A stretch of 64,000 nucleotides of DNA from a virus (IMGVR_UViG_3300027754_000037); one strand, 5' to 3'. Positions 2,802 to 45,296 are shown, counted from the stretch's first letter. The notes: generated from the sequence alone by a model not told the origin. A program made the numbers and translations.

Positions 2802-2873
2802 AGCGGGTGAAGAGATTTGAACTCTCAACATTCTGCGTGGAAGGCAGACGCTCTACCGTTGAGCTACACCCGC
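2802..2873 (-). tRNA. trnG: tRNA-Gly (anticodon TCC), no encoded CCA
   Basis: Minus strand GCGGGTG TA GCTC AACGGTA GAGC G TCTGC CTTCCAC GCAGA ATGTT GAGAG TTCAAAT CTCTT CACCCGC T: full cloverleaf, U73 discriminator, followed by TTTT rather than CCA. Confidence 0.95.
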
Positions 2874-15827: not shown

Positions 15828-16166
15828 ATGAAAAAGATCGACATTAATTACATACGGTATTTGAGTGGTGTGATCAGCGAGGCTGCTTACATGGGGGATG
15901 GTTTAGCAGCGCCAGCGGAGAAGTTTAACCTGACGAATCCTATGGTTGGCGGGATGAAGGTTGATCCCAAGAAGATGCACATGGATTTCCACAATTGGCT
16001 TCAGGTGCAGGACAAGAACGACTATGATCTTGCGCAACTGTTTGATGGGTTAGCTCACACGAAGATCATGGAAAAGTTTCTGGGCGAGTACAAGGTTCCT
16101 GAGAATTGGGCTGGTGGGCAATTCAAGGCTACGAAGGGAATGGGGAAGCAGCAGTATATTTCGTGA
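15828..16166 (+). CDS. hypothetical protein (LSGVISE N-terminal motif)
   Basis: MKKIDINYIRYLSGVISE. Confidence 0.6.
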   Translation: MKKIDINYIRYLSGVISEAAYMGDGLAAPAEKFNLTNPMVGGMKVDPKKMHMDFHNWLQVQDKNDYDLAQLFDGLAHTKIMEKFLGEYKVPENWAGGQFKATKGMGKQQYIS

Positions 16167-19939: not shown

Positions 19940-20632
19940 ATGAATTTCAGGGAATTTTTAGAAACTGAAGAGATGTTGGGTGAGTTTACAGACCCGAGGG
20001 CTGAGGACATCAGCCAGATTGAGTTTGAGCCTGTAGCACCTGAATTTAAAAAAACCAAAAATCCTATGTTTTCTTATAAGTTTGAATTTGGTGGTAACAA
20101 ATTTTCGGTTATTTTTGAGGAAAGAAAGTTAGACTCCTACATGATGAAGCCATTTGAGATTGTAGGTTATGCCATTTCATTTTATGGACCCCAACAAACA
20201 AAATCCACAGGCATGGCTGGATCTAGTGCAGGAATGATTTATAAAAAATTGATGTTGGCAGTAAGAAAATGGCTTGAAACCCACAGGGTTGATTATCTAT
20301 CTTTCCGTGGAGAGGAGTCCAAGATGGACCTTGTCTATGATTCTTTTTACACGAGGTTTTTGCAACAAGATTTCATCAGAACATCAGCTAACACCTACAT
20401 GAAGAAGTCAGTTTTGCAGGAATTTTTGCAAAAGCATCCTAGTGCCAACCAGACGATTCAAAAGAACATTAAATATACTGAAAAAGAACAAGAGATTTAT
20501 CTGGCAAGCGTGCGTGAGAAGGCTGCTAGGGATCGCAAACTTGCTAGAAAGCCGAAAGATGTAAGTTCATTCGGTCAAAAAGTGACTGGTTTGCTACCAT
20601 CATTTGGTAGGGCAACACCTGAACCCGTTTAA
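19940..20632 (+). CDS. Paralog 2 of the 3-member family
   Basis: MNFREFLETEE...EFTDP; core FYGP...TG.AG.SA.MIYKKLMLAVRKWLET. Confidence 0.65.
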   Translation: MNFREFLETEEMLGEFTDPRAEDISQIEFEPVAPEFKKTKNPMFSYKFEFGGNKFSVIFEERKLDSYMMKPFEIVGYAISFYGPQQTKSTGMAGSSAGMIYKKLMLAVRKWLETHRVDYLSFRGEESKMDLVYDSFYTRFLQQDFIRTSANTYMKKSVLQEFLQKHPSANQTIQKNIKYTEKEQEIYLASVREKAARDRKLARKPKDVSSFGQKVTGLLPSFGRATPEPV

Positions 20633-20644
20633 CTATATTAACCT

Positions 20645-21739
20645 ATGCATTATCTCATCGTTGGCACAGGTTTTTATGGCAGCGTTATTGCCCGTCAACT
20701 TGCAGAGCAAGGTGACAAAGTCACGATCATAGACAAAAGAAACCACATCGGTGGCAACTGTTACACCGAAGTGATTGATGGCATACCGGTCCACAAGTAT
20801 GGACCTCATGCTTTTCACACCAATTCTGAGCGTGTCTGGGAATTTTGCAACAAGTTTGTTGAATTCAATGGATTTCGCTTGCAGGTCAAAGTTGACTACA
20901 AGGGCAAGATATATTCTTTTCCTGTAAACATGATGACTTTGAGTCAACTTTACGGTATCACTCGTCCTTCAGAGGCGAAAAAGGCACTTGCTTCATCAAG
21001 AGTGAAGGTGAGGAATGTAAAAACATTTGAAGATCATTGTTTAAACACAATAGGGCGAGAGCTTTACGAGATTTTCTTTTATGGTTACACTCACAAGCAA
21101 TGGAACATGCATCCTAATCTCTTGGGAGCATCGGTAGCCAAGCGTATTCCTGTGCGATTGGAGTACAATGATTATTATTTTACGGACAAGTATCAAGGAA
21201 TTCCAATTGGAGGTTATACTCGGCTTTTTGAGAACATGCTTGATCATAAGAACATCAAGGTTTTGTTGGATGTTGATTTTTTTGAAAATCGTAAGGACTT
21301 TGAGCGCAAGTTCAAGAAAATAATTTACAGCGGAAAGATTGACGAGCTTTTGGAATACAAGCATGGAATGTTGGCTTACAGAAGTTTGAAATTTGATTTC
21401 AAAAAAGTTAGTGGTACTTATCAGGGCAATTCGATCATTAATTATACGGAATACAAAGTTCCTCATACTAGAATCGTGGAGCACAAATACTTTAGTGGGA
21501 TTGAAAACGGTAAGTCTGTGATTTCTATTGAGTATCCAGATGATTACTCCTTGGGCAAGACACCGTTTTATCCTATTCCGGCAGAGGAGAATCAAAAGTT
21601 ATATCAGAAGTACAGGGATGAGATTTTGGGGCAGGACAAGTATTTGATTGGTGGCAGGTTGGGTCGATACCAATATTTGAATATGGATCAAGTAATTGGG
21701 ATGGCTTTGATTGATTTTGATTCAAAATTGGCTAAATAA
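20645..21739 (+). CDS. glf: UDP-galactopyranose mutase
   Basis: FAD motif IVGTGFYGSVIA; RNHIGGNCY, HKYGPHAFHTN, YFTDKYQGIP, TRIVEHKYF, GRLGRYQYLNMDQ. Confidence 0.93.
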   Translation: MHYLIVGTGFYGSVIARQLAEQGDKVTIIDKRNHIGGNCYTEVIDGIPVHKYGPHAFHTNSERVWEFCNKFVEFNGFRLQVKVDYKGKIYSFPVNMMTLSQLYGITRPSEAKKALASSRVKVRNVKTFEDHCLNTIGRELYEIFFYGYTHKQWNMHPNLLGASVAKRIPVRLEYNDYYFTDKYQGIPIGGYTRLFENMLDHKNIKVLLDVDFFENRKDFERKFKKIIYSGKIDELLEYKHGMLAYRSLKFDFKKVSGTYQGNSIINYTEYKVPHTRIVEHKYFSGIENGKSVISIEYPDDYSLGKTPFYPIPAEENQKLYQKYRDEILGQDKYLIGGRLGRYQYLNMDQVIGMALIDFDSKLAK

Positions 21740-21742
21740 TGC

Positions 21743-22354
21743 ATGATTACATTTCAAGAATATATGCAAATTGTCGAATTCACCGATCCATCACAAGCTG
21801 ACATAAGTGATATTAATCTTATCAAGCAAGAATGGGGATATTATTACGATTGGATTTACAACAACAACAAATACAGCGTTGGTCTTGAAAAAATACAAGA
21901 CCCCAACCCGTCTTGGCTAGGATTACCGGATGGAAGCGAGATTGAAGCGAATGGTTATATTGTGGAATTTGTGGGTCCCAAGGGAACAAGACCTACTGAT
22001 TTATCTGGAGGTACAAGTCTTGTAATTTATAAGCAAATGATGTTGGTAATTAGAAAGCTTATTGAAACCGAACATGTTGATTACTTGGCTTTTTCGGGCC
22101 AGACTGGAAAGATGGATCGACTTTATGACAGGTTTGTAAAGACATTTCTTGGAGATCGATATACTTGGTATAATTATCAAATTTTGATGAATAATACATT
22201 CCTTGATCAGATAGCGCTTAAGCATCCTTCTAGTGCAAACTCGGTTGCAGAAAAGTTGTCACAAACAAAAAAAATAAGGCAACAAAATTTGATGTTTCAA
22301 AAACAACAAGACGACAAATCAAGAATCCAAAAAAGAACTAGTTTTGCCGTATAG
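21743..22354 (+). CDS. Paralog 3 of the 3-member family
   Basis: MITFQEYMQIVEFTDP; core FVGP...IYKQMMLVIRKLIET.HVDYL.F. Confidence 0.65.
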   Translation: MITFQEYMQIVEFTDPSQADISDINLIKQEWGYYYDWIYNNNKYSVGLEKIQDPNPSWLGLPDGSEIEANGYIVEFVGPKGTRPTDLSGGTSLVIYKQMMLVIRKLIETEHVDYLAFSGQTGKMDRLYDRFVKTFLGDRYTWYNYQILMNNTFLDQIALKHPSSANSVAEKLSQTKKIRQQNLMFQKQQDDKSRIQKRTSFAV

Positions 22355-22364
22355 AAGAAACCAA

Positions 22365-23660
22365 CTATTTAGCAAATCTTTCAGCAGCTTTCATGCTTGC
22401 TGCTGTTTGAGCAGTACCTTGTTGAGCTTGTTTCAAATATCTGTCTATCTCTGGGTCAGGATTGCTCCAAACGCCACTTGTGTCTGGTGGTTTTGGTTCT
22501 GTAAATCTTTTCAGGCGTTCCCAATTAGGTGAATCTGGGACATCTTTACTTGCAAATTGCTTGATAAGATTTTTGATAGTATCTGGGTCTACCTCATCGC
22601 CTTTGGCTGCTCGAGCTTGAGCAAGTTTATATTGTAGTTTTTCATAGGGGCTCATGGCAGCGTATTTGGCTTCTGCATTATAACCCTCAATGTCTTTCAA
22701 CAAATCATCAGTACCGCTTGGAGGTTGTGGAGCACGCATCCTAGCCCTAAAAGATTCCATGTCTTTGTTGATTAGCGTGGAACCACTATGCTTCATCTGG
22801 TCGGCAGTAGTTGTGTTGTCACCAAATTCACCACCGGATGCATTTCCACCCTCGAAGTCACCAGATCCTGCTTCAGGTTGAATCTGTTGTTGAACATGTG
22901 ACAAATCGTTGCTGGTTGGTAGTAGACCTTTGATTTTGTCTCCGACTTCGTTGACTAAATCCTTGGAAATCTTGCCAACGATTCCACCAGTAGCTGCTGC
23001 CAGTCCGATGGTGAGGGCGATTTTGGTTATTTCACGGGGATTTTGCGTGATATAATTTTTTAACTCCTTCATTCTGCTGGCAACTGTCTTGTAAACATTC
23101 TTGACAAGCGAGGACACAGCGCCGCCTATGGCACCAATTCCATAGCCTGTTTTTTTAGCAAGATATTCACCCCAACCTTCTTTCTCTTCTTCGGTCATCA
23201 ACCATTCACGGAAAGAGAATGATTCAGGCTGTAGTTCTGGTTTTTGCTTGCCAGCCACGGCATCAAAAGCCTTGTCAACTCCGTAGCCTACAACAGCAGA
23301 AAGTCCTTTGGTGTAATATTTTCTGGCAAAATACATGAGGGCAGACATGGGGATTGCTGCTGCTCCACCTGTGAGTCCCGCTGCTGTCAAGGTGATTGCC
23401 AGAATGGGGGAAATTCCTGTTTTATCTTGCATGAATTGTGCAAAATCTTTGCTTTTATTCAAAGCTTGTTTCGCAAGGTCGGCATATTTTGCGTATACTG
23501 CATCTTCTTTATCGGTTTGAGTGCTATAACCAGACTTTACTCCTCCTACAAAACTTTGATAGACGGACTCTTCAAATTTAAGAAAAGTCTCATCAGCAGG
23601 ATGCATTTTTTCAAAAGAATAAGAAATCATAATAGTTATTTCTTTTTTCCCATGATCCAA
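22365..23660 (-). CDS. hypothetical protein with repeated hydrophobic Gly/Ala segments
   Basis: 431-aa ORF; internal ESFSFREWLMTEEE separates two similar halves. Confidence 0.6.
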   Translation of the reverse strand: MDHGKKEITIMISYSFEKMHPADETFLKFEESVYQSFVGGVKSGYSTQTDKEDAVYAKYADLAKQALNKSKDFAQFMQDKTGISPILAITLTAAGLTGGAAAIPMSALMYFARKYYTKGLSAVVGYGVDKAFDAVAGKQKPELQPESFSFREWLMTEEEKEGWGEYLAKKTGYGIGAIGGAVSSLVKNVYKTVASRMKELKNYITQNPREITKIALTIGLAAATGGIVGKISKDLVNEVGDKIKGLLPTSNDLSHVQQQIQPEAGSGDFEGGNASGGEFGDNTTTADQMKHSGSTLINKDMESFRARMRAPQPPSGTDDLLKDIEGYNAEAKYAAMSPYEKLQYKLAQARAAKGDEVDPDTIKNLIKQFASKDVPDSPNWERLKRFTEPKPPDTSGVWSNPDPEIDRYLKQAQQGTAQTAASMKAAERFAK

Positions 23661-23899
23661 TTGTAGACTTCCTCGACATCATCACGGCTGGTGGAGATGT
23701 GATCGTTGGCCCAATCGTGGCCATCTGCAAGCATCTTGTCGATCTTGTGAGGGTCCATAGCCAAGAGTTTTTCGACTCTGTCTTTGATGTTTTTCAGGTT
23801 ATTGAAAAACATGTAGTGTTTAATTTCGTCTTCGGCTTCTGCGTAGAGTTGTTGCTCATTAAGAACGCCGGAAAGAAACAGAAAATACTTGTGGTCCAT
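23636..23899 (-). CDS. Conserved large-phage hypothetical (YMFF..GHDWAxDHI)
   Basis: Motifs HYMFFNNL and DGHDWANDHIS; N-terminal FLSGVLNE; ATAAATA upstream. Confidence 0.7.
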   Translation of the reverse strand: MDHKYFLFLSGVLNEQQLYAEAEDEIKHYMFFNNLKNIKDRVEKLLAMDPHKIDKMLADGHDWANDHISTSRDDVEEVYNWIMGKKK

Positions 23900-23981: not shown

Positions 23982-24371
23982 ATGAAATACGATATGAATT
24001 ACATTCAGTTTTTGTCCGGGGTCATTTCCGAGGAGGAGTTCAGGGGTGAGCCTGTCAATGAACTTTTCGGCTTCGGCAAATCTGATGCTGTGGCTGAAAC
24101 AGATCCCCTGACTACTCTTCAAATTACAAGTTTCTTGAAGGCAGAAGTTACAAAGCTTTCTAAGTTTGTGGAGCCAGATCAGATTGATAAACTGAATGCT
24201 CTCCATCATGACACAATGGCTTTGACAAAGGACATTGAGGATGTCATGGGTCGTATTAATGACCTCAAGTATCCTCGAAGGACTTATGCTTCAAGTGGCT
24301 CCAGCAGCAGATTGGGGGTGGGAAGGTTAAGCGCATCTCCCAGAGGACTTTCTGGATTTGGTGGCGTTTAA
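23982..24371 (+). CDS. hypothetical protein (LSGVISE motif)
   Basis: MKYDMNYIQFLSGVISEEEF; ATAAATA at 23952. Confidence 0.65.
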   Translation: MKYDMNYIQFLSGVISEEEFRGEPVNELFGFGKSDAVAETDPLTTLQITSFLKAEVTKLSKFVEPDQIDKLNALHHDTMALTKDIEDVMGRINDLKYPRRTYASSGSSSRLGVGRLSASPRGLSGFGGV

Positions 24372-29397: not shown

Positions 29398-29688
29398 TTA
29401 TACAAATTTTTTGTCAGCCAACCTCTGAGCTTTCTCAATTTTGCCATTTACCAAAGCTTTGGAGAACTTTTTTTTATGAACTAGTTCTCTGACAGCGTCT
29501 ATCTCTTCGATTCCGATAGGACGGGAGAAGAAAATGCGGTGTTCTTCATTTTGATGTCCAATATAGCAGATGCTTTCTCCGCTTTCAGCATCGAGAATCT
29601 TGACAACATCTTTGCCAAGTCCTGATATTGCGTCTAATGCGTTTATCTCGACAATTTTTTTCTTTTCAATTGAATCTTTAGACTTCAT
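29398..29688 (-). CDS. hypothetical protein
   Basis: AAGGA RBS; ATG overlaps the stop of the 2H gene. Confidence 0.55.
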   Translation of the reverse strand: MKSKDSIEKKKIVEINALDAISGLGKDVVKILDAESGESICYIGHQNEEHRIFFSRPIGIEEIDAVRELVHKKKFSKALVNGKIEKAQRLADKKFV

Positions 29689-30068
29689 GACAATTCCTTT
29701 AATGCTACTTCTTGGACAACTCCCGAGAGTTGGATCGATGGTATTGGTGTCCAAGACTGCAAATTATTGCTATCTTTGGGCTTACCGCCAGCGACTCTGT
29801 TAAGAGCTACCGTTATATGCTTGGGGCTTTTTTTGCTTGGCACATCGGTTTCTACTTCAACAGCGATTACTTTATCACTTTGACCCACTTTTGTCACTAT
29901 CAACTTTGCATAATTTCCAAGTAGATCAGCGGCAGGTCCATCCACGGCTTTGCCAAGGTTGATAGTCATGTGGTGACAGATCATTTCCCATCCATCTGGA
30001 ACCTGCGAAACAAAGTGGGAAATTAAATTAGATTGAGAAAGTTCGTCCAAAACAACTGCTGTATACAT
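29685..30068 (-). CDS. 2H phosphoesterase (tRNA-ligase cyclic phosphodiesterase-like)
   Basis: Two HxT motifs: CHHMTINLG and PKHITVA. Confidence 0.7.
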   Translation of the reverse strand: MYTAVVLDELSQSNLISHFVSQVPDGWEMICHHMTINLGKAVDGPAADLLGNYAKLIVTKVGQSDKVIAVEVETDVPSKKSPKHITVALNRVAGGKPKDSNNLQSWTPIPSIQLSGVVQEVALKELS

Positions 30069-30069
30069 A

Positions 30070-30681
30070 TCAAGCACTTTCAATAAAAGAGTATTTGACT
30101 TTGACCTCAATCAGCATCTCAGGCATACCGATATGTGTGCAAATTTTATGTTTTTTAGCTTCTTTGGCCGTCAAGAAAATGTCAGCGTGACTTTTTTCGT
30201 GAATTAATTTGTCAAAGTAGCCTTCCTTTTGACCGCAATTTCTGGCCATGATTTGGAAAATTAATTTATTGAGTCGGTCGCATTCCTTGGCATCGGCTTT
30301 GATTTCCTCGTTTTTACCAACCGTGTTGGTTGCTGCATCGTGAAGCATCAAAGTTGCAATTTCACTCATGAATCTCTTTTGGCCTGTGCTGAAGAGGATT
30401 GCTCCAGCGCTCATAGCTTTACCTGTACAGATGGTGTAAACCGGAAGGCTACACTTTTCAACATGGGATATCATATCGAGACAACCGTAAACGCTACCGC
30501 CGTATGAGTCGATTAAAATTGGCACGAAGGGCTGTCCTGTTTGCTGTGCATCTTCCATTTCCTTACGAAAATCTTTGACGGCAATTTCCGTGAATTGCTG
30601 AACCAAAACCACCACAGGGTTTTCAATCAATTCGCTATGTTTGGAACGAATGCGTGGATCAACGATTAATTTTTTAAACAT
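30070..30681 (-). CDS. clpP: ClpP-family serine protease
   Basis: IDSYGGSV, CTGKAMSAGAIL (Ser), LMLHD (His), DIFLTAKEAKK. Confidence 0.85.
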   Translation of the reverse strand: MFKKLIVDPRIRSKHSELIENPVVVLVQQFTEIAVKDFRKEMEDAQQTGQPFVPILIDSYGGSVYGCLDMISHVEKCSLPVYTICTGKAMSAGAILFSTGQKRFMSEIATLMLHDAATNTVGKNEEIKADAKECDRLNKLIFQIMARNCGQKEGYFDKLIHEKSHADIFLTAKEAKKHKICTHIGMPEMLIEVKVKYSFIESA

Positions 30682-30902
30682 TTCAGTTCTCTATAACGGA
30701 GAAATTCGAGTCTAACTGAATTCAGCATGTCAATGATGCCGATTCGGGTTTTATACTTAATTTCATCAGTTTCTTCAAGATTGGAATTTTTAATTTTTTG
30801 AATTATGTCAGAAAATTCTTTTAAATTACTTATGATTACTTTTGCATGGTCGTGTTCATCTGTGATAAAGATTACTCCTTTTTGATGACTAACTTTAATC
30901 AT
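30666..30902 (-). CDS. hypothetical protein
   Basis: 78-aa ORF co-oriented with and overlapping clpP. Confidence 0.5.
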   Translation of the reverse strand: MIKVSHQKGVIFITDEHDHAKVIISNLKEFSDIIQKIKNSNLEETDEIKYKTRIGIIDMLNSVRLEFLRYRELKCLKN

Positions 30903-30964
30903 AAGTGTCCTTGTCGTGATGGAATATTTACGAGACTTGTTTCAATAATTTTTTTGAGGAAATA

Positions 30965-31351
30965 ATGGAAAAGAACCACAAACATTTGGTGCTCAACGCA
31001 TCAGTCAAAAGCCCCATCATCAGCGAGGAAGAATGCAAAAACTGGCTTATCAAACTCGTTGAAATAATTGATATGAACATTCTAATACCACCCGTAGCAA
31101 AATATTGCAACACGGCAGGCAACGAAGGAGTTACAGGGACCATAGTGATTGAAACAAGTCACAGCAGCATTCATGTGTGGCACAAGGAAGCTGCGCCTTA
31201 CATCAGAATGGATGTGTATTCCTGCAAGGATTTTGATGTGCAGAAAGTGATTGATTTTGTTCGAGAAACTATGAATGTTGTAAGTGGTGGTTACATTCTT
31301 CTAGACAGAAATAATATTATTCCTGAATGGACCCATATTGGATCATTTTAA
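30965..31351 (+). CDS. speD: S-adenosylmethionine decarboxylase proenzyme (SpeD/SpeH-type)
   Basis: HLVL, GVTGTIVIETSHSSIHVW (autocleavage E-S/T-SH motif), MDVYSCKDF; GAGG RBS. Confidence 0.8.
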   Translation: MEKNHKHLVLNASVKSPIISEEECKNWLIKLVEIIDMNILIPPVAKYCNTAGNEGVTGTIVIETSHSSIHVWHKEAAPYIRMDVYSCKDFDVQKVIDFVRETMNVVSGGYILLDRNNIIPEWTHIGSF

Positions 31352-31702
31352 CATTGTGCTCATAATCATCTTGGTTTCCATTTCATAGGAATTGCAGATT
31401 TCCCTGTGGGTTTCTGGATTTTGGATGAGCCAGTTCATCAATTCTCCCAAACCCACAAATGGCAAGGCTACTAGCACACTCGTACCCGGAATTGGACTTA
31501 AACATCCAACCAAAGCTGCTGCCATGATTACTTTTGACATGCTTTCTCCGTAACGATCCCGCAATAAAAGGTAATTTTCTTGAATTTTCTTTTTGAATGA
31601 ATCCGTGATGGAAGTGATTTGAACTATTTTCACTTCTTGTTCAATCGCATTTTCCATAGTACATTTTTCTATGAGGTTGAAATCAAGTTTGTGATCAAGC
31701 AT
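31343..31702 (-). CDS. hypothetical membrane protein
   Basis: Hydrophobic segment IMAAALVGCLSPIPGTSVLVALPF. Confidence 0.55.
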   Translation of the reverse strand: MLDHKLDFNLIEKCTMENAIEQEVKIVQITSITDSFKKKIQENYLLLRDRYGESMSKVIMAAALVGCLSPIPGTSVLVALPFVGLGELMNWLIQNPETHREICNSYEMETKMIMSTMLK

Positions 31703-31703
31703 A

Positions 31704-32564
31704 TCAAGACCTTTTCTTGAGAATGTTGGAAGCCAATTCTGACATGTAGTGTGCAGTAGGAGTCTGTATCAGTTTGCTTATTGTTTCAATTGGATCGCCA
31801 AAACAAATCCTTTTTGGCATGGGATAGGTGTACATCGACTTGTTGAAAACTGGTGGCATGCCATGATCATAGTCGATGAACGGGGTGATTTTACTGTCAA
31901 TCATCGTTGATGATAGACCGTATGTGCCAAAAATATAAGCTTGATCGAAGACATCAGACAAATTCAAAGCCCATGCTAATTTGACAGTTTCTTTCCAAAT
32001 TGTTCTTTTGTTAATCAACTGGCGCAAAATCAAGGTTTCGGCAACCTGCAAAACCCTGTTGAAAAATTCAAATGTGAATTCCTTGAAACACATGATTCCC
32101 CCCAAGGGGACCCAATTTTTTAAGTAATATTCTTTGTTGTTTGGCATCACTTCCCAAAAATCGCCCGCCATTTTTTCTGCGTTTTGGAATGTAAAAGTAG
32201 CGTCAGGAGCGAAGATGCAGGCTCTGAATTGATTTTCAGGAAATGGCTGAAAACCTTGTTGACTTATCAAGACATGAGGATCGATAATCGTAAATTCATT
32301 TTTGATCTTGTTATTTTGTATGCAATGAATTAAAGAATATAATTGATTTAGTTTTACAAATCCCCTTTTATGGCCGATATTATTGTGTAAAAATTTATTG
32401 TTGTGATTGTTGATGTTTACGGGGAAAAAATACCCCGGATCATCCGTTTCTGCCACGGATATAATAAGATTATTTGCTTCACCCTGAGCAATAAAACTCT
32501 CTATCATCAATTCATATTGCCATTGATAATAGGTTGTGTTTTCGCTGCTGACAAAATACTCCAT
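31704..32564 (-). CDS. Glycosyltransferase resembling the plant peptidyl-serine galactosyltransferase / Hyp arabinosyltransferase family (GT96/GT95-like)
   Basis: N-terminal SSENTTYYQWQYELMIESF..QG pattern; IIDP at the DxD position. Confidence 0.5.
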   Translation of the reverse strand: MEYFVSSENTTYYQWQYELMIESFIAQGEANNLIISVAETDDPGYFFPVNINNHNNKFLHNNIGHKRGFVKLNQLYSLIHCIQNNKIKNEFTIIDPHVLISQQGFQPFPENQFRACIFAPDATFTFQNAEKMAGDFWEVMPNNKEYYLKNWVPLGGIMCFKEFTFEFFNRVLQVAETLILRQLINKRTIWKETVKLAWALNLSDVFDQAYIFGTYGLSSTMIDSKITPFIDYDHGMPPVFNKSMYTYPMPKRICFGDPIETISKLIQTPTAHYMSELASNILKKRS

Positions 32565-32583
32565 GTTTTTATTGAGTAACAGC

Positions 32584-32591
32584 TATAAATA
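32584..32591 (+). promoter_or_regulatory. T4-type late-promoter-like TATAAATA
   Basis: Exact match in the divergent intergenic gap. Confidence 0.4.
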
Positions 32592-32626
32592 TTTCCGCTT
32601 TTCCAAAGTGTTTTCAGGCGGCATGA

Positions 32627-32959
32627 ATGTCATATGAAGCATACAAACAAGTAGTCGATATCCTAAAACAAAGATGCAAGCTTGCGTTTCCGGTAAGCAT
32701 ACGCAGAACCAGTCTTAAAAATCTCGATGGGGATTGTTGCCTAAAAAACAAAAAATTCTACATTAGAATAGACAGCAACCTCAGCGAAGCTTCTGCAATA
32801 GACACTATTTTGCATGAATTTGCCCATGCCCGTGCGTGGAATCATCTACACGACTCTCTCAACCCCCACGAATTTCAGGACCAAGTTCATGATGCCTCAT
32901 GGGGAGTGGCATATAGCGAAGTTTATCAAATATACGAAAAGAATTTTTTAAAAAACTAG
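32627..32959 (+). CDS. small zincin-like (HExxH) protein
   Basis: DTILHEFAHA and HDASWG. Confidence 0.65.
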   Translation: MSYEAYKQVVDILKQRCKLAFPVSIRRTSLKNLDGDCCLKNKKFYIRIDSNLSEASAIDTILHEFAHARAWNHLHDSLNPHEFQDQVHDASWGVAYSEVYQIYEKNFLKN

Positions 32960-33567
32960 TGCTCGTGCGACACATTATTTGGAATATCATTAATGACTAT
33001 TTTCTTAATATTAGGAAATTTCGTTTTAACCTCAGGAACAAATTCCTTAAATTTAAGTATTTGATCTGGTCTATCTTCGTGAATTTCAAGTGTTTTATAA
33101 TTTGGGTTCAAGAGACCCATAATAAAATTGAATTTAATTTCAAAAGTGCTGCTGCCAACAGTTCCCGGTTGGCCAGTCAGGAAATATCCGTCCATTTTGA
33201 GGTCAGCATGATCAAGAATCTGCGTAATCCTGCGACGAAACTGGTTGGGACGACCCGTCATCAACACAACGGTAGCTTCAGAATCACTTAGATCATTCTT
33301 ACAGCTTTCAACTGACTTGGTGATATACCATTCTGGTCCCGGCATTTCAGGAACCAAGGGAGGCGACAAAGTTTCTAGCCTGCCCCACCATCCACGATGA
33401 GGCCAAGGATATCCAGTTATATCTTTATATAAAACCTTACCAGTATCTGAGTCTGGGGAATGAAACAAAGTGCCATCGAAGTCGTAGATGATCAATCTAG
33501 ACACATTAACTGCGCTCTCGTTCAGTCTATTCTGGCAATATTCCTTAAATCTTGATATTTTAGCCAT
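32956..33567 (-). CDS. HAD-superfamily phosphatase (Swiss-army-knife RNA-repair type)
   Basis: IYDFDGTLFHSP, WWG, LMTGR, IHEDR. Confidence 0.75.
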   Translation of the reverse strand: MAKISRFKEYCQNRLNESAVNVSRLIIYDFDGTLFHSPDSDTGKVLYKDITGYPWPHRGWWGRLETLSPPLVPEMPGPEWYITKSVESCKNDLSDSEATVVLMTGRPNQFRRRITQILDHADLKMDGYFLTGQPGTVGSSTFEIKFNFIMGLLNPNYKTLEIHEDRPDQILKFKEFVPEVKTKFPNIKKIVINDIPNNVSHEH

Positions 33568-35038
33568 TTTGCTTGCTTCTTAAGTCATTCCAGCGGTTGG
33601 TCATCAAAGTGCGCTTAATGGCATCAAATTCGCCACCTACTGGGGTTCTGCCCATGAACTTGAGATAAAGAGGGTTGATCTTCCTTTTGCCGTCATCTTC
33701 GCTTTGATAGGGAGAAAGATCACCGCTGTCAAAACTGAGGAAGGTATCCACATCGGGATTGTGGGCCTTTGCCATCTGCATCCAATCCTTGATCTTGGAC
33801 CTAGTCAAACCGCTGTGGGTTTGAACCATATCATAAAACTGATCGGGATCAAACTTACCTTTCGACCATTGGAATAACTTAACCAAGTAAACCACATCGT
33901 TAGCTTCTTGTTTAGACCAACCGCCTTGCAATAGAATCTGACGAACATCGTCAGGATTGTTGTTGCGCATGGTCCAAGCAGCCGACATCCATCTGTCGTT
34001 CCTGAGTTCTTCCGGCAAGTCGTCTCCGCTAAATTCAATATTCGGGAAAATTAAATTCAACAAACCAGAATCTGAAGCTGTCTTCATATATTTTCTGGCA
34101 TCAGTATCTGGATTTTCTAAACCCTTGACAAACTCTGTCTTGGCACAGCCCGAGGGCAATTTCCAGTCTTTGTGAGCTTTGACGACACTCATATACTTGT
34201 CTGGAAGTGAATTGCCTTTTCCAAAACGATTGAAGTGGTTTAGCAAGCGAAATGCCGTCATGGGATCTTCCTTCATGCGATCACCAAACTTCTCTCCAAC
34301 AGCCTTGATCTCACCAGACTTCAAATGATTGGCACCGCCGAATGGATCAATCAGATCGCTGTTGGGACCATCTTCGTTGGTCAAGGGAATATACATGGAG
34401 TTGATGGTGAAGTCACGATTTGATGCATCTTCCTCGATGTTTGCTGCGCTCATGGCATCATCTGGTGTGAAGTTTTTGCTTTTGGGAGACTTAGAAAGTG
34501 TCGAAAGAATAAAGGGTTGGCCATTCACCTCAGCCGTAATCTCCATTTCCTTGCTTTTTTTGTCCCACTTGCTGGCATAGAAAACTTTGTTCTTATTGCC
34601 AGCAACAGGCAGGCTGGAATAATTCTTGATAGCTCCGTGGCTGGGTTTGACCTCTTTGAAACCATTTTGAGACAGAATCATTCTGATTTCGCTTGGTGTA
34701 GCATCTGTGACCAGATCATAGTTGTTGGGAGTTTTTCCCATGAGGTGGTCACGAACTGCACCTCCTGTCAAATACAGAGATTTCTTTTTGAGTTGAGGTT
34801 CAACTTCGCCTTTGTTTTTTTCAATCGTCGTGTAGCCAACAGTCACCTTGTTGGAATTTGTAAATGCCTTGACGACCTTGGCAAGATTGGCATGATTGGA
34901 CTTATCAATCATGAATGGCGTGAATTCCTTATCGCCACCTTCCTTCTTTTGGAGCTTGATTTTTGCGGTAACGCCTGTGACTGGCTCCGCTTCTTTTTCT
35001 TCTCTAAATTTCAAATAATCTGAGAAATAATGTGCCAT
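33560..35038 (-). CDS. Class II CCA-adding / poly(A) polymerase-like nucleotidyltransferase with degenerate motifs
   Basis: LYLTGGAVRDHLMG, PNNYD, EDASNRDFTINSM, DPFGG..HL, EDPMT. Confidence 0.8.
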   Translation of the reverse strand: MAHYFSDYLKFREEKEAEPVTGVTAKIKLQKKEGGDKEFTPFMIDKSNHANLAKVVKAFTNSNKVTVGYTTIEKNKGEVEPQLKKKSLYLTGGAVRDHLMGKTPNNYDLVTDATPSEIRMILSQNGFKEVKPSHGAIKNYSSLPVAGNKNKVFYASKWDKKSKEMEITAEVNGQPFILSTLSKSPKSKNFTPDDAMSAANIEEDASNRDFTINSMYIPLTNEDGPNSDLIDPFGGANHLKSGEIKAVGEKFGDRMKEDPMTAFRLLNHFNRFGKGNSLPDKYMSVVKAHKDWKLPSGCAKTEFVKGLENPDTDARKYMKTASDSGLLNLIFPNIEFSGDDLPEELRNDRWMSAAWTMRNNNPDDVRQILLQGGWSKQEANDVVYLVKLFQWSKGKFDPDQFYDMVQTHSGLTRSKIKDWMQMAKAHNPDVDTFLSFDSGDLSPYQSEDDGKRKINPLYLKFMGRTPVGGEFDAIKRTLMTNRWNDLRSKQNG

Positions 35039-35441: not shown

Positions 35442-35951
35442 ATGAGTAATACAACAAAAATTGAAGAAAAAACAGAAGTTGTCATCATCGAAGAGTCCGA
35501 ATCTTCGTTTGAGCAACGAGTTGATTCCATGCTGCCAAAAATGAATGTGAGCATCCCAGAGAACTCAGGGCCACCGGCAGATGCTTTGATCAGCGACCAG
35601 CATTATTTAACGGTGTTGGACGAGATCATGAACAACATCCGTGACGACCGCAAGCAGGTTGATGATTTTTTGTCAACTTTCGCAAATATGGTCATAAATG
35701 ACGGCGATGCCACCACATCCAGCAAGGAGGCGATGGTCAATCTCGTGAAAACCAAGGTTGATCTTCAGGACAAGATGCTGAAGGCAGCGGACTTGATGAC
35801 AAGGCTGAAATTGAAAAACACTTATGCTTATTCTGGACCACATTTGAACGCCCTTCAGCAAAACAACATAAATATTGGTACGGATAACACAACTTTCAAT
35901 CGAAAAGAGCTTATTAGAGCCATCAATCAAGCGAAGAAGAAAAAGGATTAA
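35442..35951 (+). CDS. hypothetical helical protein
   Basis: 170-aa ORF heading a tightly packed + operon. Confidence 0.7.
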   Translation: MSNTTKIEEKTEVVIIEESESSFEQRVDSMLPKMNVSIPENSGPPADALISDQHYLTVLDEIMNNIRDDRKQVDDFLSTFANMVINDGDATTSSKEAMVNLVKTKVDLQDKMLKAADLMTRLKLKNTYAYSGPHLNALQQNNINIGTDNTTFNRKELIRAINQAKKKKD

Positions 35952-35953
35952 TT

Positions 35954-37276
35954 ATGTCAAGGCACGCACTCGAAGAATGGCTGGTAGAAGCAAGTGGCGA
36001 TGTTCCGGGCGGTCAATCTCCTATGGGACAGCCAGATTTCCCTCCTATGGGTGGTCCTCCTCCCGGCGACCCAAATGCCGCCAATCCTCCTGCTCCCAAT
36101 ATGGCTCCACCCGGTGCTGCACCCCAGCAGAATTCTCCAGATGCTGAGAAAAAAGCAGCAGAAATGCCCGATGTCAGCAAGGACCCCCAATCTCCCGACA
36201 TGCCCGAAAAAGCATCCGATCAGGATTTTGAAACTTGGAAAAACGAATTTTTCAAAGAAAGCGTCAAGGGAGATGTCGGCAAGCTAATCGAAATGGTCCA
36301 GCAAATTAGGGATGCGGAATTGGAAGCCTATCCCCGCAAATTCGTGGAAGATAACCTTCAAATTTGCTTTCTGCGCCAAAATGCCAACATTGAAAAGGCA
36401 GGAAAGGCTATTCGCAACAACATCAAGCAGAATCTCGACCAGAATAATCCCTCTGTTTCCCTTGTGAACCACCTACTAAGCGCTCTTCAAGTGACTCCAG
36501 AATTGAACAATGTATTCATCAAGCTGAAAGGTCTTCTGGGAATGAAGGGCGACCTTCACCGCAAGTACATGGCGAGCCTTCTTGGAGCAGTACAGGTCGG
36601 TACTGGTGGCAACAACGAAGACATCATTTATAACGAGCGTGATTATTCAATTCGCATTTCGACCCGCTTCAATGATAAGTGGGGAAGAGTCGATATCGGT
36701 AAATGGAGCCTAAAAGAAGACGATCCCGAGCGTTATCTCACCGAGCCTGAGCAAAAGAGAATGGAAGAAGGCAGTCCTGAGGAGAAAGATGTTCTTCGAC
36801 GCAGAGTGGTGATGGAGTCGATTGCCGAGGGTTTCAAGAAAAGAAGCTTTATGATTCATGTTGTAGGACAGGATGGTACTGTTGCCACACTTGGTTGGGA
36901 TTTATCTGGTAGCTTGAAGAGTGCTTATACCTCAGGAAAGCTGGTTGTAAAAACAATTCAGAGTGATAATTCCGAAGCCATGATTGATGATGACGGCGAA
37001 ATCATCCCTTACATGGACATCAAGATCAAATATGTGAAAGATGCCGATGGTGGCGTTGACGAAGATGGCAAGCCAGCCAAGGAAGATCATGATTTCATGG
37101 AGCGGATTGACGGAATGCTATTCCTGACCGCTCAATACAAAATTCTGAAGGAAGCTGCTTCAAGCTTCAGCGGTATTGTCCTGAAGGAAACGCCCTATAC
37201 CGGCAATCCGAGCGACCTGAAGACCATCATGCGCTGTGTTCCAAGTGCTCCTGAGCTTTTAATGAGGAATTGCTGA
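35954..37276 (+). CDS. hypothetical protein with Pro/Gly-rich N-terminus
   Basis: MSRHALEEWLVE followed by a PGG/PPP low-complexity tract. Confidence 0.75.
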   Translation: MSRHALEEWLVEASGDVPGGQSPMGQPDFPPMGGPPPGDPNAANPPAPNMAPPGAAPQQNSPDAEKKAAEMPDVSKDPQSPDMPEKASDQDFETWKNEFFKESVKGDVGKLIEMVQQIRDAELEAYPRKFVEDNLQICFLRQNANIEKAGKAIRNNIKQNLDQNNPSVSLVNHLLSALQVTPELNNVFIKLKGLLGMKGDLHRKYMASLLGAVQVGTGGNNEDIIYNERDYSIRISTRFNDKWGRVDIGKWSLKEDDPERYLTEPEQKRMEEGSPEEKDVLRRRVVMESIAEGFKKRSFMIHVVGQDGTVATLGWDLSGSLKSAYTSGKLVVKTIQSDNSEAMIDDDGEIIPYMDIKIKYVKDADGGVDEDGKPAKEDHDFMERIDGMLFLTAQYKILKEAASSFSGIVLKETPYTGNPSDLKTIMRCVPSAPELLMRNC

Positions 37277-41600: not shown

Positions 41601-44600
41601 GAGATGCAAGATTTTGTTAAATCTTACAAAGAAGACAAAGCAAAAATCATAGAGGCAGCTAAGGTTTTGATGATAATGGGTCCTGCCCTACTTTTGTTGG
41701 GTGCTGGATTGGTAGCTTTTGCAGGCTACTTGATTAAGACTCTTGGCATCGACATGAGTATGGGCATCGAAATTGCCGGGGGAGTAGTGGTCATAGCCGG
41801 TGTAACTGCCGGAATTGCAATTGCAGTAAAAGAATTCGTAGAAGCTTATGAAGAATTGTCCGCAAATGCCACATGGCAAAAAATACTTAACAATAAAAAG
41901 AAAATAGCAATGGAAATTGCTAAAGGAGCTTTAGCCCTTATAGTGCTTGGCGCAGTAATTTTGACAGTAGCAATAGCAGTAGTCAAATTTGCAGATTTAC
42001 TCATGGGAGCATTCGGAATAAGCCCGCAAAAGGCTGCTGAAGTGGCAACAGGCGTGGCTGCACTTCTACTTGCAACTGGCGTAATCGCCTTAGGTGTTTA
42101 TGCCGGATATCGTGGTCTGCAATTATTGTCAACTTTAGGAGCGGAAATATACGCAAGTTTTGGTGCTAGTTTAGCTGCTGTTGGATTAGGCGCATATGCC
42201 TTGCTAATTTTGGGGCCGATTATTTTAGGTGTAGCAGTTGCAGTCACTAAATTTTGCCAGCTTCTTTTGGGAGCATTTGGGCTTGATGCAGCTACAGCCA
42301 CCAAAGTTGCTTATGATGTTGGCGCTCTTCTTTTGGCTACTGGCATAATAGCTGCTGGAATACTTGCTGCTACATATGGACTAAAATATCTTTCGACTTT
42401 GTACAAAGAATTGAGCGACATTATCAAGAAAATGTTAAAGGGAGCCTTTGTGCTCTTTGCTTTGGGAGCGCCAGTCTTGTTGTTGGCTGCTGCTGTAATT
42501 GGAATTACAAAATTATTCTTAGCACTTACTGGGCTCGATTCAGCTAAAACTGCTAAAGCAGCAGAAGATTTGGCAACTCTTTTGGTTTCTGCTGGTATGA
42601 TTGCATTAGCTGTTATAGGCGCATCTTATGGCATTTCATATTTGGGTGCAAATGCAGGCGCATTAATGGCTTTGATTTGGCCAATGTTTGTAGGCGCAGG
42701 AGTATTGATTTTATTGTCGCTTGCGGTCGGAGTTCTGGCGGCAGCAATTAACTATATGGCTTCTGCAATTATCAAAGGTACAAATCCTAAGAAGGCAGCA
42801 GAAACATCAGAAGCGCTTGGTAGTCTGTTGACATCCTCTGGCAAAATCGCTCTGGCTATAATTGGAGCTTCTGCTTCTTCTGCATTACTTGCCGGGATGC
42901 TTCTTTATGTGCCTTATTTAATAGTTGCTATGTTTGTGGCTGCTGTAGTTCTCGCCCTTTTGTCAGTTGCATTAACTGCTTTCGTCAGATCAGTAATTGG
43001 AATTGCAGACCAGATGATGCTGCTTGGCAGTCCTAAAGCTTTAAGCAAGAAAGCAGAAACTGTTGCAGGAATTCTGAAAGCAGCGGGTGATGTTGCGCAA
43101 AATATCATGGATGCCAAAGACAAAGTTAAAGCTCTATACGAGTCCGTTTCATATTGGGATTATTTTTTTGGCATTAGGCGACCTTTGATTAAAGGCACAA
43201 AAGTTCTTGAAGAAATCAAATGGCCACTAGTTCTTTTTGCAATCGAAATGATGAACTTCCATTGGCTTTTGACTCGTTTTGTGAGTGCGCCCAAAGCCAT
43301 AGCTGCTGGCAAACAAGTTGCCGCTATTTTAGGAGCTATGGGCGATGTAGCGCAAAATATGGTAAAGACTAAAGATGCTGTTGCTGCTCTTGCGCCTTCT
43401 TATTTAGGTTCCTGTTGGCCTAAAATGCTTACTTTTGCGCCAACTATGGAAGATGGTGTCAAGGCTCTTGAAACTATCAAACAACCTCTGATTGATTTTG
43501 TCATTTCGATGATAGATTTCCACACGAATCTACTCAGTCAAACTGGGAGTAGCGCACCCAAGATAATAGCAGCAGGAAGACAGGTTGCCCAAATATTCAA
43601 AGCAACTGGTGAAATAGCTGAAGGCATAATGAAAACCAAAGATGCTGTTGCTGCTCTTGCGCCTTCTAAATTAGGTGCCCATTGGCCTGCATGTCTTACT
43701 TTGACACCAACTTTGGCAGATGGAACAGAAGCTCTAAAAACTATGGAAGAACCTCTGATTGATTTTATCAAAGAAGTCAAGGTATTTGCAGACAAGCTTG
43801 AGGGTGTGGTAAATCCAGCAGAAGTGAAGAAATATAGTGGCATCATTAGAAATGCCACAAGCCTTATTTCTCAAGTTGTCAGAATGCTTGATATCTTGTC
43901 TAAGAAGTTGGTCCCCTTGACTACCGGTGGGTGGTTTTCAGAATCTCCTATTAAACAAATAGGAAATGCTACCGTAGAAATATCAGCTTGGTTTGGAACC
44001 ATAGCCGTGCTTTTGAAAACTGGAATCATCGAGCCAATCAAAGAAAATTTCCCAGCCGAGGAGGAGCTCAAGATAGTGACGGGAAAACTTAACAACATGG
44101 TTAAAGTTTTGGACGCTCTGCCTCCGGTTTTGGACAAATTAGGCAGTCTTGTGGGTCAATATGCTGTTGGTGGATGGTTTACTGTCTCTCCCATAGCAGC
44201 CATAGGCAAATTTACTGATATTTTCGCTAAATGGTTTACATCCATAGCAATGATGTTGAGAACGGGAATTGTCAATCCAGTTATGGATTACTTCCCCGGA
44301 GAAGATGAAATTGAAGATGCGGCTCTTAGATTGGACGGGATGGTCACTATTTTAAATAAAATACCTCCTGTTCTTGATACTTTGGGTGATTTGCTGAACA
44401 CCTATACAGCCGGAAACTGGTTTGAACTTTCGCCCATCGGATCTTTGATGGTTCTTGGAATCAGATTTGGAGGTTGGTTCAACGGTGTTGGAATGATGTT
44501 AAGGGATGGCGTAATTAATCCTGTCCTCAAATACTTCCCCGCTGAAGACGAAGTCACAGAGATAGTCAGCAGACTTGAAGGAATGGTGGTTGTTCTCAAC

Positions 44601-45296
44601 AAGCTGGGTGTTGTTCTGGGCGAGTTAGGATTTGTTATGAGTGCTCTGAGTTCCATATCCATGCCCTTTGGATTCATGAATCTCTTCCCGATGGCAAGTC
44701 TTGGAGGCATGTTGACGGGTCTTGCTGGCGCTACCTCAGGAATAGGTTCCTTGTTCTCGGGAGGCGGGAAAACAAGTGTTGGAACTCCCAGCGATAATGC
44801 AATAGATAAAAGAGTTGAACAACAAAGTGCAGAAGCTGCCCAAATGCAAGCTGGACTGCTGGCAAAATTGGTAGATCAAGCGATTTATGGCGATGGTATC
44901 AATGTTCAGAGCGCCGGAAATGCTGCGGTCACTAGTAAAACAACAGCATCAACGATTGGCGCAAACATGGCAGATATACAGTCGAAGGTTGCAGCGCAAA
45001 AAGCAGGCAATCAACTTCCTTCCAGCAAGGTTTCAAGCGATGAGTTGGCAGACATTGCTACAGAAAGCGAGACCCAAACAGAATTGCAGAAGAAGCTTGT
45101 TGGTTTGTTTGAGGATATGCTTAAGGCGCTTAAGCCTGCTGATCAAGCGATTGTTGGTCAAGCAGGAGCAGGTCCCGCCGACACTTCTGGCGAAAAAGTA
45201 GGTGGAAAACCGCCAAATTACTTTCGATCCAGCCAAGGCATGGTAAACAGCGGCCCCGGCAAGCAAACGCTGAACATGGGTCCACAAAAAGCGTAA
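38610..45296 (+). CDS. Tape measure protein
   Basis: 2228 aa, helical A/G/K-rich N-half, long hydrophobic TM-rich middle, internal repeats (TKDAVAALAPS..WP; GGWF..SPI); lies directly upstream of the baseplate genes. Confidence 0.8.
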   Translation: MADNVGRSIDALNLTIGQLKDLLNTKCSTPTPMGGGSSGSLGELAQVLEKFTKDFKKEMEDQTKHLKDVLGAKSSVDGKRAANKKTKPVADNADSLGSDDYLDDVSDNYKFMNALESSLQKNKLKFDRQYLATATQNIRTRHTELSHLDEKAFLAKLESETYYKKALADETLALKQNISAARQLRDQFSEIQSMLGSFEQSLGLKTTETLFGGIVEQEMKFTQEIRATAYETAGATKEARGLQRAFEDIGKSVAQTGVNRTEFQKSYQQALRSGVKDLKQAGNLTTAQLNTEKQLGMEAGSLQDTFQDLAMSGRMNSGQIADMGRGMRDVAKATGLTGEALRGAIDSSKELIRDLRNASQLTAASAKNVIEISANAKKLGVESEVNNLMKGLVSSNNLILDASNETRTLILQAASKVGRVEDAMNGTITRSKEGIKDLAKGMEKILKDFGVNGVEEIDNLSDTAKRDLNLRIKAVYGMELGQFRSTLESMKESGKGLGDRLEDINKKLQQNATTEEKKVLMEQQRQLKTSKQLEVLTALDEAAKGAKDMGQALSKFGDRKKDFEKDMQALGTSWTSETQVARDAIKGSLESVNEGLKKAGKEEIKISSDEIEKAIKDPTALRELTAKITKGEQQLATAQKAQLDPVTETNQKLTEINDTLRNMSQNVISKLFNSFLGKIIMIGGVLSGIGAAVIGLGVTGKNAYDTLGKLIKGGQDLYGGKQESFVSNIKKYFGIGGKKNATPEGGASSPTEAAAAAAAAAAATAPKETAPKSAEAVTKATTEGKGGRYVKILEESLKELNSISNTMSQSSLFLQKISECICRPRKAAAAGTPPGAGGTSADSAARVALQREQKTNVKTDAKLNEKQLKEQNKEIKRGKREDIIQRAETKGAKAAAKESKGGKVDCPPTAEAGCLEPSVMENMGAEMKKAAPAILMFAAGALLLGIALMWLANKLLAALNLDAAKIAETAESLIVIVGVTAAIAAAAYAAGKVLMSEEMQDFVKSYKEDKAKIIEAAKVLMIMGPALLLLGAGLVAFAGYLIKTLGIDMSMGIEIAGGVVVIAGVTAGIAIAVKEFVEAYEELSANATWQKILNNKKKIAMEIAKGALALIVLGAVILTVAIAVVKFADLLMGAFGISPQKAAEVATGVAALLLATGVIALGVYAGYRGLQLLSTLGAEIYASFGASLAAVGLGAYALLILGPIILGVAVAVTKFCQLLLGAFGLDAATATKVAYDVGALLLATGIIAAGILAATYGLKYLSTLYKELSDIIKKMLKGAFVLFALGAPVLLLAAAVIGITKLFLALTGLDSAKTAKAAEDLATLLVSAGMIALAVIGASYGISYLGANAGALMALIWPMFVGAGVLILLSLAVGVLAAAINYMASAIIKGTNPKKAAETSEALGSLLTSSGKIALAIIGASASSALLAGMLLYVPYLIVAMFVAAVVLALLSVALTAFVRSVIGIADQMMLLGSPKALSKKAETVAGILKAAGDVAQNIMDAKDKVKALYESVSYWDYFFGIRRPLIKGTKVLEEIKWPLVLFAIEMMNFHWLLTRFVSAPKAIAAGKQVAAILGAMGDVAQNMVKTKDAVAALAPSYLGSCWPKMLTFAPTMEDGVKALETIKQPLIDFVISMIDFHTNLLSQTGSSAPKIIAAGRQVAQIFKATGEIAEGIMKTKDAVAALAPSKLGAHWPACLTLTPTLADGTEALKTMEEPLIDFIKEVKVFADKLEGVVNPAEVKKYSGIIRNATSLISQVVRMLDILSKKLVPLTTGGWFSESPIKQIGNATVEISAWFGTIAVLLKTGIIEPIKENFPAEEELKIVTGKLNNMVKVLDALPPVLDKLGSLVGQYAVGGWFTVSPIAAIGKFTDIFAKWFTSIAMMLRTGIVNPVMDYFPGEDEIEDAALRLDGMVTILNKIPPVLDTLGDLLNTYTAGNWFELSPIGSLMVLGIRFGGWFNGVGMMLRDGVINPVLKYFPAEDEVTEIVSRLEGMVVVLNKLGVVLGELGFVMSALSSISMPFGFMNLFPMASLGGMLTGLAGATSGIGSLFSGGGKTSVGTPSDNAIDKRVEQQSAEAAQMQAGLLAKLVDQAIYGDGINVQSAGNAAVTSKTTASTIGANMADIQSKVAAQKAGNQLPSSKVSSDELADIATESETQTELQKKLVGLFEDMLKALKPADQAIVGQAGAGPADTSGEKVGGKPPNYFRSSQGMVNSGPGKQTLNMGPQKA

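Follow-up and report, generated by a model that had tools for sequence, protein, structure and literature searches.

Toxins that cleave tRNAs or modify their ends stop phage translation, and HEPN toxins trim tRNA 3′ ends. RNA-repair sets are known in jumbo phages (Iyer et al. 2021, PMC7824862), whose toolkits contain 2H phosphoesterases, which deal with cyclic ends, standalone 'Swiss-army-knife' (SAK) HAD phosphatases, CCA-type nucleotidyltransferases (NTases), polynucleotide kinase and ATP-dependent RNA ligases, scattered over a large genome; the standalone HAD enzyme is listed there with the other repair enzymes and is assigned the removal of linear phosphates (PMC7824862). In phage T4, the internal proteins IPI-III carry at the N terminus a capsid-targeting sequence (CTS), which reads MKTYQEFIAE (PMC8442874), in which residues 4 and 7 are required for targeting and residues 8 and 10 for processing, the protease gp21 cutting after L/I-x-E (PMC9026906). 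The present text concerns a block of genes in a 64,000-nucleotide stretch of viral DNA (IMGVR_UViG_3300027754_000037; the whole stretch is called the window) that holds a 2H gene, a SAK HAD gene and an NTase-like gene with the fold of a CCA-adding enzyme. The parts are those of the jumbo-phage toolkits, and what is new is a set of variants of that known theme: CTS-like leaders on the HAD and NTase proteins, an NTase of a derived clade lacking the canonical catalytic and templating residues, and a very small 2H protein (122-127 residues). We put at about even the chance that the block is part of an RNA-repair toolkit in which a CTS-led HAD enzyme works beside an NTase-like partner that does not polymerise.

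The three genes are intact open reading frames (ORFs) on the minus strand, at 29685-30110 (2H, with the true start at 30068), 32956-33567 (HAD) and 33560-35038 (NTase). They and their elements are as follows.

29685-30068, minus strand: mini 2H phosphoesterase, read as CNPase/Trl1-CPD type from its H-x-T motifs and fold, 127 residues, no leader
32956-33567, minus strand: SAK-family HAD phosphatase (PF10307, HAD_SAK_1), 203 residues, full catalytic set
33517-33567, minus strand: CTS-like leader of the HAD protein, residues 1-17 (F7, Y10, L15-N-E17)
33560-33567, minus strand: 8-nucleotide overlap ATGGCTAA of the NTase stop and the HAD start, read directly in the sequence
33560-35038, minus strand: protein with the class II CCA-enzyme fold (PF01743, Foldseek), 492 residues, rewired active site
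35000-35038, minus strand: CTS-like leader of the NTase protein, residues 1-13 (Y4/F5, Y8, L9, F11-R-E13)

An earlier note on this DNA had described three minus-strand genes, the HAD gene overlapping the CCA-like gene, and had seen CTS-like N-termini on the HAD and NTase proteins. The genes are where it placed them, the overlap is the eight nucleotides given above, and the N-termini match the T4 CTS pattern, a relative possessing the gp21-gp22-gp23 module as well. Its assignments to the 2H and HAD families are likewise borne out, by the H-x-T motifs and the match to CNPase for the former, and by PF10307 and intact motifs for the latter. The start ATG of the HAD gene sits within the final codons of the NTase gene, and translational coupling of the HAD gene, which lies downstream, to the NTase gene is supported by this arrangement of the sequence.

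The leaders are one of the features in which the block differs from the jumbo-phage toolkits. In all 121 NTase homologues the protein begins with the pattern M..F..Y.x[LIF][RK]E, with Y or F at the second aromatic position and variable spacing after the methionine, and in all of them (121/121) a linker rich in Gly, Ser, Asp and Asn, from near zero to ~60 residues long, separates this leader from the first conserved block. Residue E13 is invariant in an alignment of 32 sequences. The AlphaFold2 model of the NTase gives residues 1-23 a pLDDT (predicted local distance difference test) below 50 and draws them as a low-confidence helix detached from the fold. Among the HAD homologues a subset has a leader (for example M-I-T-F-E-K-F-V-T-I-K-E-S), and the others begin a few residues before DFDGT. 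The leaders of both window proteins have aromatic residues at positions i and i+3 and end in hydrophobic-x-Glu; judged by these residues, the pattern is the same as that of the T4 CTS, slightly stretched. The likeness to the CTS of IPI-III extends to the N-terminal position, the attachment to unrelated cargoes and the head module in a relative. The leaders here differ in being 2-7 residues longer and in that their packaging and cleavage are predicted from sequence, and the cargoes are enzymes of RNA-metabolism and anti-defence families, whereas those of T4 are small basic proteins.

The window runs from base 64001 to base 128000 of a viral record (G000) that is 144,066 bases long and that CheckV rates 33% complete. 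The leader pattern stands at the start of 11 of the 197 ORFs of this record, against 1.1 ± 1.0 after residue shuffling (maximum 5 in 500 shuffles), and at 14 of 374 early methionines against 1 of 750 internal ones; it was written after G000 had been seen, several other matches in the window are mutually paralogous, so that the independent cases number fewer than 11, and the sole independent count is that in the relative G001, with 14 ORFs against 3.1 ± 1.8 in shuffles (maximum 10). G001, a 532,729-base contig whose NTase is 57% identical to that of the window, is the nearest complete relative in IMG/VR. Its head genes follow the T4 order: the gp21-type protease (PF03420, 4e-29) comes first, then a gp22-like scaffold with a coiled coil, then the gp23 capsid protein (PF07068, 1e-86). 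Contigs holding full-length NTase homologues reach 670 kb, and among deposited phage genomes the sole full-length NTase match is an uncultured 595-kb phage; a megablast search of the INPHARED phages with the region gave no match. On the strength of the T4-type head module of G001, the large contigs and the 595-kb match, the source element is taken to be an uncultivated, T4-related huge phage. The leaders suggest that the HAD and NTase-like proteins are head cargo, trimmed by a gp21-type protease and injected.

Other leader-bearing proteins of G000 would extend this cargo. Outside the window they include a SAM-lyase-family protein (PF23780, 53073-53738, plus strand), which if packaged would suit an anti-restriction role, and an FMN-reductase-like protein (PF03358, 31726-32595, plus strand); a further one has a weak acyltransferase-fold (AAT) match. 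Leaders of this kind offer a way to list, from sequence alone, the proteins that uncultivated T4-related huge phages probably inject. A leader-bearing paralogous family, with members in the window at 16240-17142, 19940-20632 and 21743-22354 (plus strand) and in G000 at 43945-45270 (minus strand), shares an acidic stretch after the leader, of the type T-D-P-S-Q-A-D-I-S-D-I, and has no Pfam match. A second leader-like family, of the form M..Y..F-L-S-G-V-I/L-S/N-E, occurs in the window at 15828-16166 (plus strand), 23994-24371 (plus strand) and 23636-23899 (minus strand).

A competing explanation is that the block is an ordinary cytoplasmic RNA-repair set made after infection, its leaders serving recognition by a ClpP-like protein, localisation or regulation of translation. 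Jumbo-phage RNA-repair enzymes have been described as expressed and not as virion cargo (PMC7824862), a ClpP-like gene lies within the same conserved block, and the T4 late-promoter motif TATAAATA, of which the window holds 6 copies against 2.0 expected, was found upstream of none of the NTase, HAD and 2H genes. Such roles for the leaders sit poorly with their agreement with the T4 CTS at exactly the residues for targeting and cutting, with the invariance of the leader Glu and the widely varying length of the linker behind it, and with the T4-type trio of protease, scaffold and capsid protein in relatives, and we consider this explanation a minority possibility. Were the leaders not packaging signals and the NTase-like protein inert, an ordinary jumbo-phage RNA-repair set is what would remain.

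The NTase-like protein has the fold of class II CCA-adding enzymes and departs from them in the active site and in some added parts. Its head domain matches PF01743 at 78.4 bits, and Foldseek aligns its fold with 6q52, 8cbm, 3h37, 1miv and others at an E of 1e-11 over ~450 columns. With class II enzymes it shares the head-neck-body-tail architecture over those columns, the GGAVRD motif, the RD of motif B, motif C and the ED of motif D; it differs from them by its leader, by an extra N-terminal domain of ~65 residues (~residues 24-87) and by an insertion between motifs A and B. A look-up of the N-terminal domain (residues 20-88) in the Atlas returned unnamed clusters only. The motifs were compared, by pairwise and profile alignment, with enzymes of known structure and with the annotated tRNA NTases of two cultured phages, which retain DxD, E, RRD and EDxxR. 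Motif A of the window protein reads N106-Y-D108 instead of D-x-D, and I177 occupies the column of the Glu in the E-h-T-T-F-R strand, a residue that we take to be the third carboxylate. Motif B reads N207-R-D instead of RRD, and motif D reads E-D-P-M-T261 instead of EDxxR. Motif A is where the two catalytic Mg ions bind, and motif D serves as the amino-acid template for the incoming base (PMC7947759). Of the 121 homologues, 110 have N at position 106, six have G, two have S and two have D; at position 108 there is D in 110 and N in 11, several members having Asn at both 106 and 108; and position 177, where no acid is conserved, is E in 31, N in 30, D in 11 and R in 11, with others besides. N207 and T261 are conserved across the family, the Thr in ~80% of it. 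The third gene had been called CCA-like and credited with the rebuilding of tRNA ends: the name holds for the class II fold and PF01743, while CCA rebuilding by the window protein cannot be assumed, since DxD, Glu, RRD and EDxxR are all altered.

The history of these changes can be followed in the leader-bearing NTase family, from which 55 IMG/VR loci were compared with 12 loci holding ordinary phage tRNA NTases. By active site, 39 of the 55 are of the window type, eight are fully canonical and eight are intermediate. In a maximum-likelihood tree rooted at the midpoint, with the ordinary phage NTases on the outgroup side, all the window-type sequences fall in one clade (100/100, stem 0.71), the sister of which is a weakly supported group (80/52) made up of the canonical and intermediate sequences. 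Nested among the latter is a second group that has lost residues independently (100/100, stem 1.16). Members of this second degenerate clade are L104, L105, L107 and L109, which have N-x-E or D-x-Q and GRD or SRD and keep the templating Arg. A HAD gene immediately follows the NTase gene, on the same strand, in 30 of the 55 family loci, made up of 20 of the 39 window-type, five of the eight canonical and five of the eight intermediate ones, and in none of the 12 ordinary loci. As canonical and intermediate members are also paired, the association of NTase and HAD appears older than the loss of the catalytic residues. In two relatives another gene intervenes: G001 (L002 9445-10176) has an extra ORF between NTase and HAD, in which an internal Met is followed by the leader-like F-N-E-W-L-E-V, and L011 has a 146-residue ORF in that place.

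A fully active NTase would give the block a different meaning, that of a virion-delivered set for acceptor-end repair only, in which the 2H enzyme opens a cyclic phosphate, the HAD enzyme dephosphorylates the end and the NTase adds CCA again. The chemistry is coherent, only the two proteins that work on 3′ ends have clear leaders, and the ancestral pair probably worked in this way, the eight deeper-branching leader-bearing members keeping DxD, E, RRD and EDxxR, with HAD downstream in five. The window NTase, by contrast, keeps one of the two Asp residues of DxD and has neither an acid at 177 nor the templating Arg, some members of its clade have Asn at both 106 and 108, no second PF01743 gene was found in the G000 fragment or the complete relative G001, and the genome encodes a ligase and a kinase; for the window block we regard acceptor-end repair with an active CCA-adding enzyme as unlikely. 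Because its non-canonical active site lies within a derived clade, the NTase is not filed here as a CCA-adding enzyme and is treated as a derived, strongly conserved offshoot, predicted to be either non-catalytic or changed in its chemistry. A non-polymerising role in binding tRNA ends is favoured, since catalytic residues have disappeared on two occasions without loss of the fold, the leader or the HAD partner. The rewired clade, which to judge from the tree arose once and has been kept in many phages, is a candidate pseudoenzyme or neo-enzyme; we know only of active members in the CCA-enzyme family.

The HAD protein has the marks of a working enzyme. The SAK HAD family was reportedly defined by Burroughs and Aravind in 2016. 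PF10307 matches the window protein at 4.3e-15 and 56.5 bits (gathering cut-off 25.6) and is present in all 65 of its homologues, and the Pnkp-type HAD family gives a weak match. Residues D29, D31, T33, T104, K145 and D165 are invariant in 32 sequences and E164 is conserved in at least 90% of them, so that motifs I-IV are whole; because these catalytic residues are invariant or nearly so, the enzyme looks active. A search of the PDB with the HAD sequence returned nothing.

The 2H protein of the window itself has no Pfam match at E ≤ 0.1, and searches of PDB sequences with it and with its family profile gave nothing meaningful, the matches coming from structure comparison alone. Its 23 other homologues are 119-168 residues long, and H33-M-T35 and H84-I-T86 are invariant in an alignment of 19 sequences. 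PF08302 (tRNA_lig_CPD, where CPD stands for cyclic phosphodiesterase) is matched by 17 of the 19 family members, at best with 1.6e-7, and is the only Pfam family that the relatives match. The AlphaFold2 model has a pLDDT of 90.7. In an exhaustive structural scan it is placed closest to the catalytic domain of CNPase (2xmi; Z 12.5, root-mean-square deviation 2.2 Å, 121 of 127 residues), with further 2H entries at Z 5-8 and plant and bacterial cyclic phosphodiesterases at Z 6.5-7.3. Foldseek against the PDB returned 2H entries only (CNPase, the Trl1 kinase-CPD 6u05 and a LigT-like protein), and the best viral models in BFVD are giant-virus Trl1-like 'RNA ligase' proteins of 765-771 residues, matched in their CPD part at 5e-5. 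A distant family member lies ~2.3 kb from a PHA02142-OB + RNA_ligase gene. We read the gene, from its motifs and modelled fold, as encoding a minimal RNA 2′,3′-cyclic phosphodiesterase of the CNPase/Trl1-CPD type. It has in common with CNPase and with the fungal, plant and giant-virus Trl1 CPD (PF08302) the 2H fold and the two H-x-T motifs, and differs in standing alone, without fusion to a kinase or ligase, at ~60% of the usual domain size. A TTG at 30110 was rejected as its start in favour of the ATG at 30068, since every homologue begins with M-Y-T-A (18/18 aligned). This ATG is 1 nucleotide past the stop of the ClpP-like gene.

The same protein also recalls Acb1, the anti-CBASS nuclease of T4-type phages, which is likewise a phage 2H enzyme and about as small. 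On this basis the three genes could be functionally unrelated neighbours, the 2H protein breaking down cyclic-nucleotide immune signals in the manner of Acb1 and the HAD protein being a phosphatase of nucleotides or metabolites. Acb1 (7t27) matches the 2H model at Z 7.9 and ranks seventh among the BFVD matches, at an E of 2.4e-3, other genes are interposed between the three, and the linkage of the 2H gene is loose. CNPase and the giant-virus Trl1-like ligases nevertheless score well above Acb1, tblastn of the 2H protein against the Acb1 genes of T4-type phages gave no match, the sequence matches of the family are to PF08302, and the HAD protein, of a family defined by its occurrence in RNA-repair settings, is tightly paired with a protein of tRNA-enzyme fold. 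We hold a chance neighbourhood of this kind to be very improbable.

No RNA ligase occurs within the 64-kb window, as the earlier note had observed, and from that absence it had argued for CCA-end repair; the observation stands and the argument does not, since the genome holds an Rnl2-type ligase. The search for Rnl and Pnk that the note had proposed finds this ligase outside the window, as a PHA02142-OB + RNA_ligase gene at G000 22417-23409, together with an AAA_33 P-loop kinase at G000 35728-36441 (minus strand). With ligase and kinase encoded in the same genome, the case for acceptor ends alone fails, and by its gene content the lineage can seal internal breaks. G001 encodes three ligases of PF09414 and an Rnl1, a kinase adjoining one of the ligases, and neither RtcB (PF01139) nor Tpt1/KptA (PF01885) was found in G000 or G001. 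The T4 system of Pnkp with Rnl1 and Rnl2 is similar in that healing precedes ligation and that its counterparts occur here (an Rnl2-type ligase and a P-loop kinase, and Rnl1 in G001). It differs in that the phosphatase here is a separate SAK HAD, a 2H protein would handle cyclic ends, and the genes are dispersed. The ligase of G000 has no leader. The N-termini of the AAA_33 kinases of both genomes are loosely leader-like, with M-K-A-F-A-Q-W-V-E in that of G000 and L-F-Q-W-M-Q-D-P-L-N-E in that of L049 (1252-1875, minus strand), and the kinase may also be head cargo.

The gene models, folds, motifs, synteny, leader pattern with its enrichment and T4-type head genes of a relative are observed; we infer all the enzymatic activities and their substrate, as well as packaging, cleavage, injection and a non-catalytic part for the NTase-like protein. 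The favoured course of events would be as follows. The HAD and NTase-like proteins probably enter the prohead, lose their leaders to a gp21-type protease and are injected with the DNA, so that they could act ahead of all phage protein synthesis. The mini 2H enzyme would open RNA 2′,3′-cyclic phosphate ends left by metal-independent host RNases, with a 2′-phosphate as the assumed product, by analogy with CNPase and Trl1-CPD. The SAK-family HAD enzyme would strip the remaining terminal phosphate and leave a 2′,3′-diol end, and the NTase-like protein, no longer a CCA polymerase, would retain the binding of tRNA 3′ ends and serve the HAD enzyme as an RNA-recognition partner or end-protector. The diol end could be extended by a CCA enzyme, or joined by an Rnl2-type ligase after 5′ phosphorylation. 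Extension would need the host enzyme, because the phage copy looks unable to polymerise, and for breaks inside a tRNA to be sealed, the P-loop kinase and the Rnl2-type ligase, whose genes lie in other parts of the genome, would be required. If this is true, healing enzymes delivered as protein cargo would solve the need to translate repair enzymes first; to our knowledge no case of RNA-healing enzymes delivered in this way has been described.

A more specific version concerns a large clade of T4-related huge phages: the dead CCA enzyme and the HAD enzyme would be packaged by means of their leaders and injected as a pre-made rescue device for tRNA 3′ ends, before phage translation begins. The dead enzyme would recognise the acceptor end, the HAD enzyme would remove a blocking 2′- or 3′-phosphate or a pyrophosphate added by a host abortive-infection toxin, and host enzymes would complete the ends. 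We advance this version tentatively and think it, on balance, doubtful. A complex prediction for residues 24-492 of the NTase-like protein with residues 20-203 of the HAD protein scored 0.00, which is evidence neither way.

Several observations weigh against a virion-delivered HAD with a non-polymerising partner. At 25 of the family's 55 loci, some of which end within ~1.5 kb of the NTase gene, no downstream HAD gene was called, and a 2H gene lies within 10 kb in four of the 55, to which the window, L010 and L011 are to be added, so that its linkage is loose; the 2H protein also has no leader. The gp21-type protease was found in the relative G001 alone, at the distance of an NTase 57% identical, and was not found in the 144-kb fragment G000, itself 33% complete. 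The independent leader count is a single one, and the NTase gene is among those with no late-promoter motif upstream. The conserved N106, N207 and T261 fit a new activity at least as well as a plain loss of activity. A search for experimental work on PF10307 or SAK HAD enzymes found none in the literature library that it covered. QRD in place of RRD is found in active CC-adding enzymes (PMC7947759), so that NRD alone leaves activity possible.

The notion of a dedicated three-gene unit, also put forward earlier, is not supported: four other named genes stand between the 2H and HAD genes, and the 2H gene is loosely linked in relatives. The intervening features are these.

30070-30681, minus strand: ClpP-like gene (PF00574, 6e-22)
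within 30070-32959: ORF of 78 residues, intervening, not RNA repair
30965-31351, plus strand: SAM-decarboxylase-like gene (phrog_3125, 7e-16)
within 30070-32959: ORF of 119 residues, intervening, not RNA repair
31704-32564, minus strand: HPAT-like GT-A glycosyltransferase, 286 residues (Atlas structure and feature matches)
32627-32959, plus strand: small SprT-like zincin with HExxH

The order NTase, HAD, SprT-like, glycosyltransferase of 280-290 residues, ClpP-like and then 2H recurs in L010 and L011. The 286-residue HPAT-like protein, which is not an RNA-repair protein, keeps its place between the HAD and ClpP-like genes, and the L010 copy is 40% identical. The ClpP-like gene is coupled translationally to the 2H gene, and the same block is kept in relatives. 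As a candidate for the prohead protease it was judged less likely, relatives having their own gp21-type protease in a head module of T4 order. In L011 a gene with a cREC_REC domain (PF20274, predicted cyclic-phosphate processing; 1159-1491) adjoins the HAD gene, and the block also has two aminoacyl-tRNA synthetase genes.

A scan for sigma-70 promoters and terminators gave results not above those of shuffles. Elsewhere in the window there are a tRNA-Gly(TCC) gene at 2802-2873 (minus strand) and an intact UDP-galactopyranose mutase gene at 20645-21739 (plus strand; PF03275, 1e-69).

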